Shown here piece after piece: positions 27,001 to 36,000 of a stretch of 64,000 nt of DNA. The position numbers are program-made. Positions within the stretch are counted from its first letter, which is position 1; each line of letters begins with the position of its first letter. Location of the stretch: NCBI RefSeq assembly GCF_057098645.1, contig NZ_CM169472.1; one strand, written 5' to 3'.

Positions 27001-30000
27001 TACGCTGGTGGAAGCCGTGCAGTCGATTGAAGATATTAAACTGCTGCGCGCTGAACAGCGTTTTCAGAATCAGTGGAATCACACTAACGACGTGGCCTCG
27101 TCCATCAGCATGAAGCAACGTTTTCTCACCGGGCTACTGCTCACCTGGACCCAGGAAGTGCAATCCATCGTCTACGTCGTGGTGCTGTTGGTGGGCTGCT
27201 TTATGGTGATGAACGGCGACATGACCACCGGCGCACTGGTTGGGACGACGATCCTGGCTTCGCGCACCATCGCGCCGCTGTCGCAGATATCCGGCGTGCT
27301 CTCGCGCTGGCAGCAGGCGAAAGTAGCACGTAACGGCCTTGATGAACTGATGAAGCGCCCCGTGGATCAGCCGGAACACGGCAAACTGGTGCATAAAGCG
27401 GTGCTGCACGGTAATTATCAGTTCAGCAACGCTATCTTTTATTACGACGAAGAAGAGAAGATTGCCGATGTAGCGATTGGCAAACTCAACATTCAGGCTG
27501 GTGAGAAAATCGCCATTCTCGGGCGCAACGGCGCGGGTAAATCGACGCTACTGCAAATGCTCGCCGGAATGCGTATCGCCCAGCAGGGGCAGGTGTTGCT
27601 GGATAACATCAGTATCGGGCAGCTTGATCCGGCAGATCTGCGGCGAGACATGGGGCTACTCAGCCAGACCGGGCGACTGTTCTTTGGTTCGCTGCGGGAA
27701 AACCTCACCATGGGGATGCCGGAAGCCAGCGATGAAGATATCGAACGCGCGTTAACCCTCAGCGGAGCGCTGCCCTTTGTGCAGAAGCAGAAAAACGGCC
27801 TCAACTACATGATTCAGGAAGGGGGATTTGGCCTCTCTGGCGGCCAGCGGCAAACGCTGCTGCTGGCGCGGCTTCTCATCTCTCAGCCGAATATCGTCCT
27901 GCTCGACGATCCCAGCGCCTCGCTGGACGAAATGGCGGAAGCGTATTTAATCGAACAACTGAAACAGTGGATTGGGCATCGCACGCTGGTCATCGCCACT
28001 CACCGCACGGCGATGCTGCAACTGGTGGACCGCATTATCGTGATGGATCAGGGGCGGATTGTGATGGATGGCGCGAAAGAGGCCATTTTGCGTGAACAGG
28101 GCGAACCCACGGCGCGACGGGTGGTGTTGCAGGAAAAGAATAAGGGGTCTGCCGCATGAACGGACAACTGCAATATAACCGTGGCCTGACTGAACCCCGC
28201 CTGCCGCGTTCGGCGCTGGCAGTGCGTGTGACCGTTGTCATGCTGCTCTGTTTTCTTGGCTGGGCGTGGTACTTCCAGCTTGATGAAGTCACCACCGGCA
28301 GCGGCACGGTAGAACCTTCCGGGCGCGAGCAGGTGGTGCAGTCGCTGGAAGGCGGAATTCTGTATCATCTCGACGTGAAAGTTGGCGATATTGTCGAACA
28401 GGGCCAGCCGCTGGCGCAGCTTAACCGCACCAAAACCGAATCCGACGTCCAGGAAGCGATGTCGCGGCTGTACGCGGCGCTGGCAACCTCGGCGCGGCTG
28501 CGGGCGGAAGTGAGTAATAAACCGCTGGTCTTCCCTGACGAACTGAATAAATTCCCCGAACTTATCGAGTCGGAAACGGCGTTGTACAACACTCGCCGCG
28601 ACGGGTTGAACAAAGCCACCACCGGGCTGACGCAGGGGATTAGCCTGGTCAACCGTGAACTGGCGATGACCCAGCCGCTGGTGAAACAGGGGGCGGCGAG
28701 CAGCGTCGAAGTGCTGCGCCTGCAACGCCAGGCCAATGAACTGGAAAACAAACTCAGCGACGTGCGCACGCAATACTACGTTCAGGCGCGCGAAGAGTTA
28801 GCGAAAGCCAATGCGGAAGTGGAAACCCAGCGTTCGGTGATCCGTGGGCGTGAAGACTCCCTCACCAGGCTCAACTTTACTGCGCCAGTTCGTGGCATTG
28901 TTCAGGATATTGACGTCACCACAGTTGGCGGCGTCATTGCCCCCGGTGGTAAACTGATGACCATCGTGCCGCTGGATGAACAACTGCTGATTGAGGCAAA
29001 AATATCCCCGCGCGATGTGGCGTTTATCCATCCGGGGCAAAAATCGCTGGTGAAAATAACCGCCTACGATTACTCCATCTACGGTGGTCTGCCGGGGGAA
29101 GTGGCGGTGATTTCACCGGACACCGTGCAGGATGAAGTGCGGCGCGATGTTTATTACTATCGGGTGTACATTCGCACTTTCAGCAACCATCTGGAAAACA
29201 AAAGCAAACAGCAGTTTCCGATATTCCCCGGTATGGTGGCGACGGTCGATATCCGCACCGGCAAAAAAAGCGTGCTGGATTATCTGTTGAAACCCTTTAA
29301 CAAAGCACATGAGGCGTTGCGCGAACGATGAACATTAGCGATGTAGCAAAAATTACCGGCCTGACCAGCAAAGCCATTCGCTTCTATGAAGAGAAGGGGC
29401 TGGTGACGCCGCCGATGCGCAGCGAAAATGGTTATCGAACCTACACGCAGCAGCATCTCAACGAATTGACCTTACTGCGCCAGGCGCGCCAGGTGGGCTT
29501 TAACCTGGAAGAGAGCGGCGAGCTGGTAAATCTGTTTAACGACCCGCAGCGTCACAGTGCCGACGTCAAACGTCGCACGCTGGAGAAAGTCGCGGAGATC
29601 GAACGGCATATCGAAGAACTGCAATCTATGCGCAACCAGCTACTGGCGCTGGCGAATGCCTGCCCCGGTGATGACAGCGCCGACTGCCCGATTATCGAAA
29701 ATCTCTCCGGCTGCTGTCATCATCGGGCGGGGTGATTAACGCTTGCGAAAATAGTCGTCCATTATTTTCGTCAACTCCGGACGTTCGCCGTCATCATTGA
29801 TGGCAAAATCCAGAAAAAAAGCATCTGCTTGCGGCGTTCGGTTTTGCGCCATCAACCGGAAGGTGAGGGGGCGATAACTGACGTATGCCGGATAGCTGAT
29901 AACGAATCGGGCAAAGTCAATAAAAAGCGGCGAGTGTGTGAAAAACAGCGCCTGCAAAATTACATCAGCCTTTTCATCCTCCCCCAAACCTTGTTGGATC

Positions 30001-33000: not shown

Positions 33001-36000
33001 TTCAACCGTATCATCTGCAAAAGCAGATGGGCTCACAATGGTAGCAACAACGACTGCCAGTAAAGACAACTTTACAGATTTCATTTATTTTTTCTCGATC
33101 AAATTAAGTTTACTTTGGTTTCTAATAGAAACTAATAATATTTCTATTGGAGTTAATTTGCGTTGCAATTTAATCGAAATCTACGCCGCCATTTGTGTGA
33201 TGTAAAGCGCGTTTTTATCTTGTGTAAGCGTAAACACTGCCTATAAGAAACTGAATTGGTTTCTTAAGTAAATAATTTTGAAAATCATTTTGTGCTATTT
33301 TAGCGTAAAAAAGAGTAAAGACTTGTTTTGATAAGCGAAATAAATTCTGTTTCTGGACTAAACGTGAAGCGGTTCCTGATGTGTGCTAAAATGCGTTTCT
33401 TTGATAAATCTCAATTTTTAAGAGGTTTACGCCAGGCAGGAAAATTTAAATGAATGAATTTGAGAAGATTTTTAATGAAATGAATCTGGACCGGGCATTG
33501 CTACCGATCCTTTTTCGTTCGAACCGGTCGACAGTATGGAAGTATTTAAGCGGCGATAGTACGGCTCCTGCCTCTGCCATGTCGCTGATTATGCTGTTGC
33601 AGTTGATCCAGAAACGAAACCCCGATCTGTTAGCCGAATGGTTAACGCTTTCTGATTTCACCATTCCGCCAGAAGTTTACCTGGACCAGCCTGATTACTG
33701 GAAAGGGTGGGTGTATACGCAACACAAGGTCAATAAAAACGTCCTGGAATATCTAAAAAAACACTATCCGGATGAAGACCAAAAAAGTATGAGTAAAGGC
33801 CGGGAAGAGTAATTTTGCCTCTACTCGGCTATATGCCGGATGCGGCGCAAGCGCCTTATCTGGCCTACGATTCGGGCATATTTTGTAGGCATGATAAGAC
33901 GCGTCAGCGTCGCATCAGGCGATGACCGCACGGATGATCAGCGTTATCCCTTCTATCGCAATGACTTCAACATGCGTACCTGCGCCGAGATCCTCGCTGG
34001 CGCTGACAGGCCATGAACTGTCACCGACGCGCATATGACCGCGCCCGTTGACCAGCGGAGATTCCAGCACAAAACGTCGGCCAATCAGCTGCTGCCCGCG
34101 CTGGTTTAAATGACTGTCGCTGTGCTTTTGTTCGCGCACCCGCCGCGACAACCATTTCCACCACAGCCAGGCGGCGAGCAGCGTCAGGACGGCAAACATC
34201 ACCCCTTGCCACTCCCAACCCAGCGGCACCAGCCAGACTACCAGGCCGGTAATCACCGCTGCCACGCCGCTCCACAACAAATAACCATTTCCGCCCAGCA
34301 TCTCGGCTGCCAGCAGCAAACCGCCGAGACTTAGCCAGAAAATATGTGGATGAACGACCATTAACTCCATCATGGCTGAGTCCGCTTGTTGGCGCTGTCT
34401 TTCACCAGCTCGGCAATCCCGGCAATCGACCCCATCAGGCTGCTGGCCTCTAATGGCATCATCACTACTTTGCTGTTACTGGACGAACCGATCTGCTGTA
34501 ACGCTTCGGTGTATTTCTGCGCTACGAAGTAGTTCACCGCCTGAATATCACCGGAGGCGATGGCTTCAGACACCATTTTGGTGGCGCGGGCTTCTGCTTC
34601 GGCGGAACGTTCACGCGCTTCAGCCTGTAAAAACGCCGACTGACGTTCGCCTTCCGCTTTCAGGATTTGCGACTGTTTTTCACCTTCGGCTTTGAGGATT
34701 TCCGCCTGACGGATCCCTTCCGCTTCGAGGATGTAAGCGCGTTTGGTACGTTCCGCTTTCATCTGCGCGTTCATTGAAGAGATAAGCTCTGCCGGTGGGC
34801 GCACGTCGCGAATTTCAATACGGGTGACTTTAATCCCCCACGGGTTGGTGGCTTCATCGACAATACGCAGCAGGCGTGAGTTGATGCTGTCGCGCTGAGA
34901 GAGCATTTCGTCAAGTTCCATTGAACCCAGCACGGTACGGATGTTAGTCATGGTCAGGTTGATGATCGCCAGCTCCAGATTGCTGACTTCATAAGCCGCG
35001 CGTGGCGCGTCAATCACCTGAATAAAACAGACTGCGTCGATGGTAACGTTGGCGTTATCTTTCGAGATAACTTCCTGGGAAGGGATATCGAGCACTTGCT
35101 CCATCATATTGATCTTGCGACCAATGCGATCCATAAACGGCACCACCAGACTGAGCCCCGGCTGTAACGTTTTGGTATAGCGACCAAAACGTTCTACCGT
35201 CCATTGATAGCCCTGCGGCACGATTTTGACGCCCGCGCCGACAATGACCAGCGCGACAAAAATGAGAATCGGGATAAAGATAAGCATCGGAAAAACCTCC
35301 TGTTGTACCGTCCATAATCAGCAAAATTGCTGCTTGATTAAACAAATTATACCTGATTACTGAAAGAGAGTTCCCCCTTATTCCTGCGAAGGATAAACTG
35401 TTTTTAGTAAAAATCAGAAAAAGGGAACAGCGATGCAGGAAAATAGTCCTTTGCTTCAGCTACAAAACGTAGGATATCTGGCGGGTGATGCGAAGATTCT
35501 TAATAACATCAATTTTTCGCTGCGTGCTGGCGAATTTAAGTTAATTACCGGTCCTTCTGGTTGTGGCAAAAGTACGCTGCTAAAAATAGTTGCTTCATTG
35601 ATCAGCCCAACCAGCGGAACGTTACTGTTTGAAGGTGAGGATGTCAGCACACTAAAGCCAGAAATCTACCGCCAGCAAGTCTCTTACTGCGCCCAGACAC
35701 CGACGCTGTTTGGCGATACGGTATACGATAATCTGATCTTTCCCTGGCAGATCCGTAACCGGCAGCCTGACCCAGCCATTTTTCTCGATTTTCTCGAACG
35801 CTTCGCCTTGCCGGACAGCATTTTGACGAAAAATATCGCCGAGCTATCTGGTGGTGAAAAACAACGCATCTCACTGATTCGTAACCTGCAATTTATGCCG
35901 AAGGTTTTATTGCTGGATGAAATCACCAGTGCGCTGGATGAAAGTAATAAACATAACGTTAATGAGATGATCCATCGTTATGTGCGCGAGCAAAATATTG

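Follow-up and report, generated by a model that had tools for sequence, protein, structure and literature searches.

Between cueR and ybbJ, two genes that abut in Escherichia coli K-12, the 64,000-nucleotide stretch of DNA analyzed here (NCBI RefSeq assembly GCF_057098645.1, contig NZ_CM169472.1; hereafter the window) carries a block of 4,179 bp (29736-33914) with five open reading frames (ORFs) and two repetitive extragenic palindromic (REP) elements (Table 1). In K-12 MG1655, the cueR stop is at 514400 and ybbJ ends at 514401, with 0 bp between them, and thus the block is absent from K-12. A first-pass annotation of the window had already taken cueR and ybbJ to be adjacent in K-12 and had described an insertion relative to that strain, with REP elements on the ybbJ side; two such elements can be read in the sequence, and all five of the ORFs that it drew are present where it drew them, with one adjustment: the 409-residue ORF likely starts at the ATG at 30959, a choice that follows RefSeq annotation and the N-termini of homologues and that gives a protein of 407 residues. 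The G+C content is 31-48% over 31000-33800, as compared with 55-60% in the flanks. We find that the block is the O145:H28 form of a known genomic island of enterohemorrhagic E. coli (EHEC) O157:H7, namely OI-29 (EDL933) or S-loop 43 (Sakai), and that it is made up of two independent modules: a four-gene cassette (module B, ∼31010-33820), which includes a gene for a trimeric autotransporter, and a single gene adjoining cueR (module A, 29736-30959).

Table 1. Features of the cueR-ybbJ interval and its flanks (positions in the window)
Feature	Positions	Strand	Remarks
cueR	29328-29735	+	left flank
409-aa ORF	29736-30965	-	409 aa from GTG 30965
Module A protein	29736-30959	-	407 aa from ATG 30959
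68-aa ORF	31048-31254	-	
140-aa lipoprotein	31251-31673	-	
436-aa YadA-like protein	31774-33084	-	
Intergenic region	33085-33449		divergent, AT-rich, putative regulatory; between adhesin gene and 120-aa gene
120-aa ORF	33450-33812	+	divergent
REP pair	33826-33921		BIME-like unit at the ybbJ border; sequence read directly
ybbJ	33915-34373	-	right flank

A known island in a new configuration

A 5.1-kb stretch of the window that spans the block matches many E. coli O145:H28 chromosomes, for example that of RM13514, at 100% identity; in RM13514-type genomes, RefSeq names the products 'YadA-like family protein', 'lipoprotein', and, three times, 'hypothetical protein'. The gene set, which the first-pass annotation did not recognize, was matched to OI-29 / S-loop 43 by mapping published knock-out primer arms (PMC5826968) onto the sequences. 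The order in Sakai is cueR, a 67-residue ORF, the lipoprotein gene ECs0546, the 338-residue 'adhesin' gene ECs0548, the 120-residue ORF ECs0549, and ybbJ, with no 409-residue gene in the interval. The z0638 arm adjoins the lipoprotein gene, the z0640 arm adjoins the start of the 120-residue gene, and both gmrA (z0639) arms flank, with 0 mismatches, exactly the 338-residue YadA-like ORF; the autotransporter gene that encodes 436 residues in O145 thus has gmrA as its O157 allele.

The two forms of the island occupy the same cueR/ybbJ site, and by blastp their lipoproteins and 120-residue proteins are 100% identical and their 68-residue proteins 98.5% identical. The autotransporter genes correspond in position, and their products have the N-terminal domain, the C-terminal third, and the anchor in common. 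In contrast, the O145 block measures 4.18 kb as compared with ∼2.64 kb in O157, it has the additional 407/409-residue gene adjoining cueR, and its autotransporter is 436 rather than 338 residues long, with 98 more stalk residues and 52% identity overall.

Among 5,426 complete E. coli genomes, the lipoprotein and 68-residue genes were matched in 1,416 and the 120-residue gene in 1,415, nearly all at ≥95% identity; in other words, about a quarter of complete E. coli genomes carry the cassette, which is also found in Pseudocitrobacter. The 409-residue gene is present in some form in 965 genomes (270 full length, ∼695 degraded), and at least 144 genomes cover ≥80% of the whole 5.1-kb block. Used as a query, the 5.1-kb stretch matched a median of 5 places per E. 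coli genome, a multi-copy signal that would fit a repeated element such as REP.

Two modules at one site

Strains with module A only, module B only, both modules, and neither all exist. For example, the 409-residue gene stands alone between cueR and ybbJ in ATCC 25922 and is a frameshifted remnant in S10EC, and O157, UTI89, and ETEC1701 keep the cassette and are missing the 409-residue gene. Alignment of the junctions places the cassette between the 5' region of the 409-residue gene and a REP pair that is common to all variants; the identical pair adjoins ybbJ both in ATCC 25922 (module A only) and in Sakai (module B only). The two REP-type elements lie at ∼33835-33870 and ∼33885-33921, and the second extends into ybbJ, of which it supplies the last codons. 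It is because this island-side element forms the 3' end of the gene that the last ybbJ codons are unlike those of K-12 (33915-33945 vs. positions 3402-3440 of the K-12 locus, L006), and the breakpoint of gain or loss thus lies within ybbJ, not between the genes. Signatures of a mobile element were sought among the ORFs, in the RefSeq annotation, and by a scan for repeats; apart from the common REP pair, neither direct nor inverted repeats at the borders nor genes for an integrase, a transposase, or a tRNA were seen, no scan having been aimed at tRNAs specifically. Gain and loss may have proceeded by homologous or REP-associated recombination. A phage or defense origin was considered and set aside: PADLOC returned nothing meaningful, PHROGs matched the adhesin only, and the lipoprotein had no phage match.

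Related cassettes are found outside E. coli. In Pseudocitrobacter (loci L013-L015, ∼3470-6340), the same four genes are found on the far side of the ybbJ-qmcA operon, where qmcA and fetA flank them. The cassette is thus of long standing in this part of the chromosome without being tied to a single site. Its autotransporter alleles in Pseudocitrobacter are 363-473 residues long, with completely different N-terminal parts. Pseudocitrobacter faecalis (L008, 90-8936) has a second copy of the cassette beside a large serine recombinase, in which tandem adhesin-like genes of 633 residues (with a YadA anchor) and 588 residues (ending in AGSLSVGW, with no Pfam anchor match) precede the lipoprotein gene and a gene for a 64-residue membrane protein.

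The other side of cueR in the window is also foreign. Immediately upstream of cueR (25997-29331 and beyond; L001, 1-9032) lies a second island. It includes a gene for a giant adhesin of the BapA/SiiE kind, which the RM13514 annotation gives as a pseudogene interrupted by a stop, together with genes for an ABC transporter of type I secretion (25997-28159) and for an HlyD-family adaptor (28156-29331). The end of the adaptor gene and the start of cueR share 4 bp, so that cueR directly follows foreign genes and not its K-12 upstream region.

A hypervariable trimeric autotransporter

The first-pass annotation had assigned the leading gene of the block to the trimeric autotransporters, and a profile search finds the expected anchor at full length: Pfam YadA_anchor covers residues 377-436 of the 436-residue protein (model positions 1-60 of 60, E = 2.7e-10). 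In a phmmer search of PDB sequences the protein matches AtaA, Hia, and other adhesin anchors, the AtaA anchor being nearest in sequence among solved structures (E = 1.6e-6), and it ends in GVGVGYSF, with an aromatic final residue. The N-terminus, MKSVKLSLLAVVVATIVSPSAFA followed by DD, resembles a Sec signal peptide: its n-region is basic, its core is hydrophobic (the Kyte-Doolittle maximum over 19 residues is 1.92, at residue 4), and an AxA-type site is present at AFA/DD. From these sequence features we take it to be one. Between the ends, residues ∼95-365 form a putative coiled-coil stalk, which in general profile searches matches coiled-coil-type models alone (SMC, Rad50, helix-rich families). 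The passenger is acidic (pI 4.6), with 4 Pro, 10 Gly, no Cys, and no Trp, and it contains the internal repeats that the first reading had seen (residues 194-216 vs. 226-248 and 295-308 vs. 309-322), which are present at the protein level only; no tandem repeats were found in the DNA of the gene.

Neither the O145 nor the O157 allele has a Pfam match to YadA head, Hep_Hag, or HIM, even at E ≤ 10. With no head or neck family detected, we call the protein 'head-less', with an unclassified N-terminal domain of ∼65 residues. Head modules are common in trimeric autotransporters and are not required for type Vc secretion. The PHROG 'adhesin' family phrog_17426 matches residues 44-436 (E = 4e-22), and the protein has the signal peptide, the probable coiled-coil stalk, and the YadA anchor of Saa, of the Eib family, and of the prophage-borne members of phrog_17426; ECs0548 was historically labeled 'Saa-like'. 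It differs from these proteins in the absence of a detected YadA head, Hep_Hag, or HIM, in its distinct N-terminal domain, and in its setting, the gene being chromosomal and its lipoprotein partner without a phage match.

This is the variable gene of the cassette. The O145 allele, at ≥80% query coverage, is present in 28 of the 5,426 genomes; in 540 genomes the anchor half alone is detectable, at ∼80% identity, and the other cassette-positive genomes yield no megablast match at all, whereas the partner genes are ≥95% conserved. Hypervariability amid near-invariant neighbors is the pattern that would be expected of an exposed surface protein, and it is not the one that would be expected of a promoter-specific DNA-binding protein. 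In E. coli PapRG-06-5 (L002, 5460-7610), the annotation has the autotransporter begin at an internal start codon, as a 349-residue protein with no signal peptide, downstream of ∼1.1 kb of unannotated DNA, and the partner genes are intact; the autotransporter gene is probably disrupted in this strain.

The lipoprotein and its coupled membrane protein

The autotransporter gene is followed, as the first-pass annotation had noted, by a lipoprotein gene. The product has the lipobox LLAG/C and a mature N-terminus of C-S-S, and the Ser at position +2 predicts an outer-membrane location. The family alignment shows a conserved motif with a Cys pair, SRMAxCQAQG(I/V)SxDTCYLAEQNRQ, and a conserved C-terminal domain; the AlphaFold2 (AF2) model is confident in the C-terminal domain only, where the predicted local distance difference test (pLDDT) score exceeds 84. 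The predicted architecture is an N-terminal helical part followed by a small PliC/MliC-like beta-barrel. The family is small (152 clusters among 1.84 billion representatives) and essentially enterobacterial. Pfam and NCBIfam gave no informative match, neither Pfam nor the fold revealed a BamE or OmpA domain, and there was no phage homologue; the profile of the lipoprotein family also picked up large proteins with Cys-rich repeats, among them P0230 and P0255, which we discounted as spurious. In two loci (L011, from Symbiopectobacterium, 4520-5621, and L020, 965-1542), the lipoprotein is split into a gene for the lipidated helical N-terminal part and a gene for the C-terminal barrel, the latter with a signal peptide of its own in L020, which suggests that the protein consists of two separable domains. 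The autotransporter of L011 is truncated, and thus the cassette is decaying there.

Directly after the lipoprotein gene, and overlapping its stop in the sequence ATGA, begins the gene for the 68-residue protein. It has a basic N-terminus and a transmembrane helix at residues ∼14-32 (the Kyte-Doolittle maximum over 19 residues is 2.65, at residue 14) and is predicted to cross the membrane once, with a tail of ∼35 residues towards the periplasm. Identity is 98-100% in O157, UTI89, and enterotoxigenic E. coli (ETEC) and 38-52% in the Pseudocitrobacter cassettes. We also tried to read the lipoprotein and the small membrane protein as a spanin-like pair and rejected this, as the sole match (E = 0.029) is confined to the lipobox, the two genes stand in the opposite order, and the tail in the periplasm is not long enough.

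How closely does the lipoprotein gene travel with autotransporters? In 8 of 10 independent contexts, a YadA-anchor gene, whole or as a remnant, lies directly upstream of the lipoprotein homologue; the eight comprise E. coli, the Pseudocitrobacter qmcA-fetA site, the second P. faecalis copy (where the whole cassette is conserved), Enterobacter asburiae, three metagenomic contigs, and Symbiopectobacterium (a degraded remnant).

The divergent gene and the intergenic region

The 120-residue protein has homologues of 74-82% identity in Pseudocitrobacter and Symbiopectobacterium, and its gene is always divergent from the adhesin gene. Its N-terminal 50-60 residues gave three sub-threshold helix-turn-helix (HTH) matches, to the MqsA HTH (E = 0.12), Xre-like-HTH (0.047), and HigA-2 (0.55), and the protein may be an Xre-like HTH protein.

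The region between the two divergent genes (365 bp, 31% G+C) contains six GTTTCT/AGAAAC hexamers where 0.25 are expected, and 0 of 5,000 shuffles reached six. Four of the six make up two palindromes, at 33118-33132 and 33246-33264, each of which is unique in the window and is retained in O157, UTI89, and ETEC. Additionally, an extended -10-like element, TGnTAAAAT, is conserved upstream of the 120-residue gene, and the blocks GAATCTACGCCGC...TGTGATGTAAAGC and TGnTAAAAT...GTTTCTTTGAT are kept as far as Pseudocitrobacter and Symbiopectobacterium. The palindromes and conserved blocks are candidate operator sites. Rfam found no RNA family in 29300-34400.

The module A protein

The 407/409-residue protein consists of an N-terminal beta domain with the motif CPTC, a central ParB/sulfiredoxin-fold domain with DGHHK, and a C-terminal helical repeat. 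CPTC, YPTDGNGHFFW, and LLDGHHKAxAAAL are invariant across the homologue alignment, the AF2 model has a pLDDT of 86.6, and the full-length relatives in AFDB50 are automatically named ParB-like or ParB/Srx; the protein thus has the ParB/Srx core fold with the DGHH[KR]-like nucleotide-binding motif. It is a cytoplasmic protein with no signal peptide and is presumably nucleotide-dependent. There was no match in Pfam, NCBIfam, PHROG, or PADLOC. Compared with described ParB/sulfiredoxin-fold proteins (the KorB N-terminal domain, the SerK/SbnI kinases, sulfiredoxin, and PadC), it lacks a Pfam ParBc match, an HTH, and partner genes, and it has the CPTC beta domain and the helical repeat in addition. 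Homologues, named 'hypothetical' or 'cytoplasmic', occur in E. albertii, Salmonella (52% identity), and Firmicutes (22-35%), and no conserved neighbors of the family were found. The Salmonella enterica homologue (L007, 6001-7239; a cluster of 2,700 sequences) lies between rihA and the Hsp70 gene hscC, near djlB/djlC-type genes.

Known helpers of trimeric autotransporters

Two helpers of trimeric autotransporters, SadB and TpgA, are the only ones described, according to a 2026 preprint (10.64898/2026.01.22.700529). In SadA/SadB of Salmonella and E. coli, a trimeric autotransporter has a dedicated lipoprotein, SadB, which has Asp at +2 and stays in the inner membrane (PMC3953254). There are parallels with OI-29: in both systems, which are confined to enterobacteria, the gene of a trimeric autotransporter has that of a small lipoprotein as its companion; both genes of the pair were lost together from K-12; and the lipoprotein is helical towards its N-terminus and ends in a beta domain. 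The first-pass annotation had pointed to SadB as a possible precedent, and as an analogy the comparison stands; as homology it does not. A phmmer search of all PDB sequences at E ≤ 10 with the OI-29 lipoprotein found neither SadB nor YajI, and there is no similarity in sequence or fold, the C-terminal domain being a predicted PliC/MliC-like barrel and not a MATH-like beta-sandwich. The OI-29 lipoprotein has Ser, not Asp, at +2, and its gene is downstream of the adhesin gene, whereas sadB is upstream. Furthermore, the OI-29 cassette adds the 68-residue membrane protein, and its autotransporter is short and head-less as compared with the long, multi-domain SadA.

The AtaA/TpgA system of Acinetobacter resembles OI-29 in that the partner gene adjoins the autotransporter gene and in the similarity of the AtaA anchor; TpgA, however, is a periplasmic BamE-like/OmpA-like protein, and the OI-29 lipoprotein has neither of these domains. 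The 2026 survey found no new helpers but required a YadA head domain (10.64898/2026.01.22.700529), which is absent from the 436-residue protein, and it would thus have missed the pair of lipoprotein and 68-residue protein.

A probable surface-fiber cassette beside an unrelated gene

We consider it likely that the block is a surface-fiber cassette, with an autotransporter, envelope partners, and a local regulator, together with an unrelated cytoplasmic gene at the cueR/ybbJ site. The autotransporter would be exported by Sec, and three copies, giving four strands each, would form a 12-stranded outer-membrane barrel from which an acidic, glutamine-rich coiled-coil fiber with a small N-terminal tip domain would be displayed on the cell surface. 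The passenger is a hot-spot of diversity, as a surface-exposed antigen or adhesin is expected to be. Downstream, the two genes that are coupled in translation would provide a predicted outer-membrane lipoprotein and a 68-residue inner-membrane protein, which most likely act on the fiber in the periplasm, in its biogenesis, anchoring, or signaling. The 120-residue protein would probably be an HTH regulator that acts locally, at the intergenic region with its many GTTTCT hexamers, and module A contributes an unrelated cytoplasmic ParB/sulfiredoxin-fold protein. The analysis establishes which island this is, that it is modular, which domains it encodes, and how its genes are conserved and linked; display at the surface, partnership of the lipoprotein and the 68-residue protein with the fiber, and regulation by the 120-residue protein are inferred. 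Compared with the first-pass annotation, the observation of the insertion is confirmed and its interpretation is supported in part; what fell away is the single four-gene set, as well as homology to SadB.

That all four minus-strand genes form one co-transcribed functional unit, as the first reading had grouped them, is suggested by their common orientation, by the short gaps of 100 bp (adhesin/lipoprotein) and 88 bp (68-residue/409-residue genes), and by the genomes, noted earlier, that cover most of the 5.1-kb query. The 409-residue gene, however, varies independently of the cassette: it is alone in ATCC 25922, it decays on its own, and it is absent from O157 and UTI89 despite the cassette. 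Its Salmonella homologue is at a different locus, no homologue adjoins the Pseudocitrobacter cassettes, its product has no signal peptide, and the junction alignment puts the cassette between its 5' region and the REP pair; we therefore regard a single unit of four genes as extremely improbable. Or is the lipoprotein an envelope-protection factor unrelated to the fiber, such as a lysozyme inhibitor of the MliC/PliC type, that merely travels with it? The predicted barrel is of that kind, but the Pfam MliC match is absent, the gene is coupled translationally to a membrane-protein gene, and its linkage to YadA-anchor genes is tight and recurs at different sites and in different genera. Such a co-traveling factor is unlikely, and a lysozyme-inhibitor role is a minor possibility.

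The reading of the autotransporter as a surface fiber also has to be set against the published one, in which its O157 counterpart GmrA is a transcription factor. Deletion of gmrA or of OI-29 lowered motility and the expression of fliA, fliC, and motA, and gmrA alone complemented; an electrophoretic mobility shift assay (EMSA) showed a shift of the fliA promoter, and chromatin immunoprecipitation with quantitative PCR (ChIP-qPCR) gave a 7.75-fold enrichment; and phenotypes were similar in eight strains, with K-12 carrying gmrA becoming more motile (PMC5826968). A 2024 review repeats the assignment (PMC10877973). The knock-out arms, however, bound exactly a 338-residue ORF whose N-terminus resembles a signal peptide and in which YadA_anchor matches at full length (E = 2.6e-11). 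This anchor is the sole significant Pfam domain of the O157 allele, with no DNA-binding family reaching significance, and the same holds for the O145 allele; the 'DNA'-named matches on the O157 allele (TMF_DNA_bd at E = 0.16 and SMC, far below the cut-off) are coiled-coil artefacts. The O157 passenger is acidic, with a pI of 4.7 and 17 K+R as compared with 31 D+E, and the gene is hypervariable where its neighbors are not. Among the literature that we searched, no paper joins 'GmrA' and 'trimeric autotransporter'. The published genetics may well be sound, and the motility phenotype could be real but indirect, for example through envelope signaling or over-expression effects; the transcription-factor mechanism, as far as sequence can tell, conflicts with every feature tested, and we judge it very unlikely.

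Several observations weigh against the surface-fiber cassette as we draw it. Deletion of z0638, the lipoprotein gene, had no motility phenotype, whereas deletion of z0639 did, and the lipoprotein is thus dispensable for the only phenotype reported so far; gmrA alone altered K-12 motility, which speaks against a strict helper role of the lipoprotein; and deletion of OI-29 in O157:H7 did not reduce adherence to HeLa and Caco-2 cells (all PMC5826968). Two of the 10 lipoprotein contexts, one contig (L010) and Klebsiella aerogenes, have no autotransporter upstream, and the lipoprotein is like neither known helper. Scans for promoters and terminators were at or below shuffle expectation, which leaves co-transcription of the adhesin and lipoprotein genes across their gap a candidate only. 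Surface display of the fiber is itself a prediction from the protein's features, and the regulator assignment of the 120-residue protein depends on HTH matches below threshold.

Within the surface-fiber cassette, we can go one step further, tentatively and with the expectation that it is somewhat unlikely to hold in full: the lipoprotein, with its disulfide-paired helical N-terminus and PliC/MliC-like barrel, and the coupled 68-residue protein would be a third kind of dedicated partner system after SadB and TpgA, and GmrA would really be a surface fiber, its effect on fliA and motility being indirect, e.g. by envelope-to-cytoplasm signaling via the partners or by envelope-stress pathways.

Outlook

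The island itself is ordinary, in that it is a known and annotated accessory locus of E. coli; the O145 block is a new allele and configuration of it, and its overall novelty is low. The 407/409-residue gene represents an uncharacterized ParB/sulfiredoxin-fold family that is common to enterobacteria and Firmicutes. For specialists, the conflict between the sequence of GmrA and its published function merits follow-up. Finally, a lipoprotein gene, often with a gene for a tiny membrane protein, follows YadA-anchor genes at unrelated sites and in different genera, and its product is a testable candidate for a helper or signaling partner of these autotransporters.

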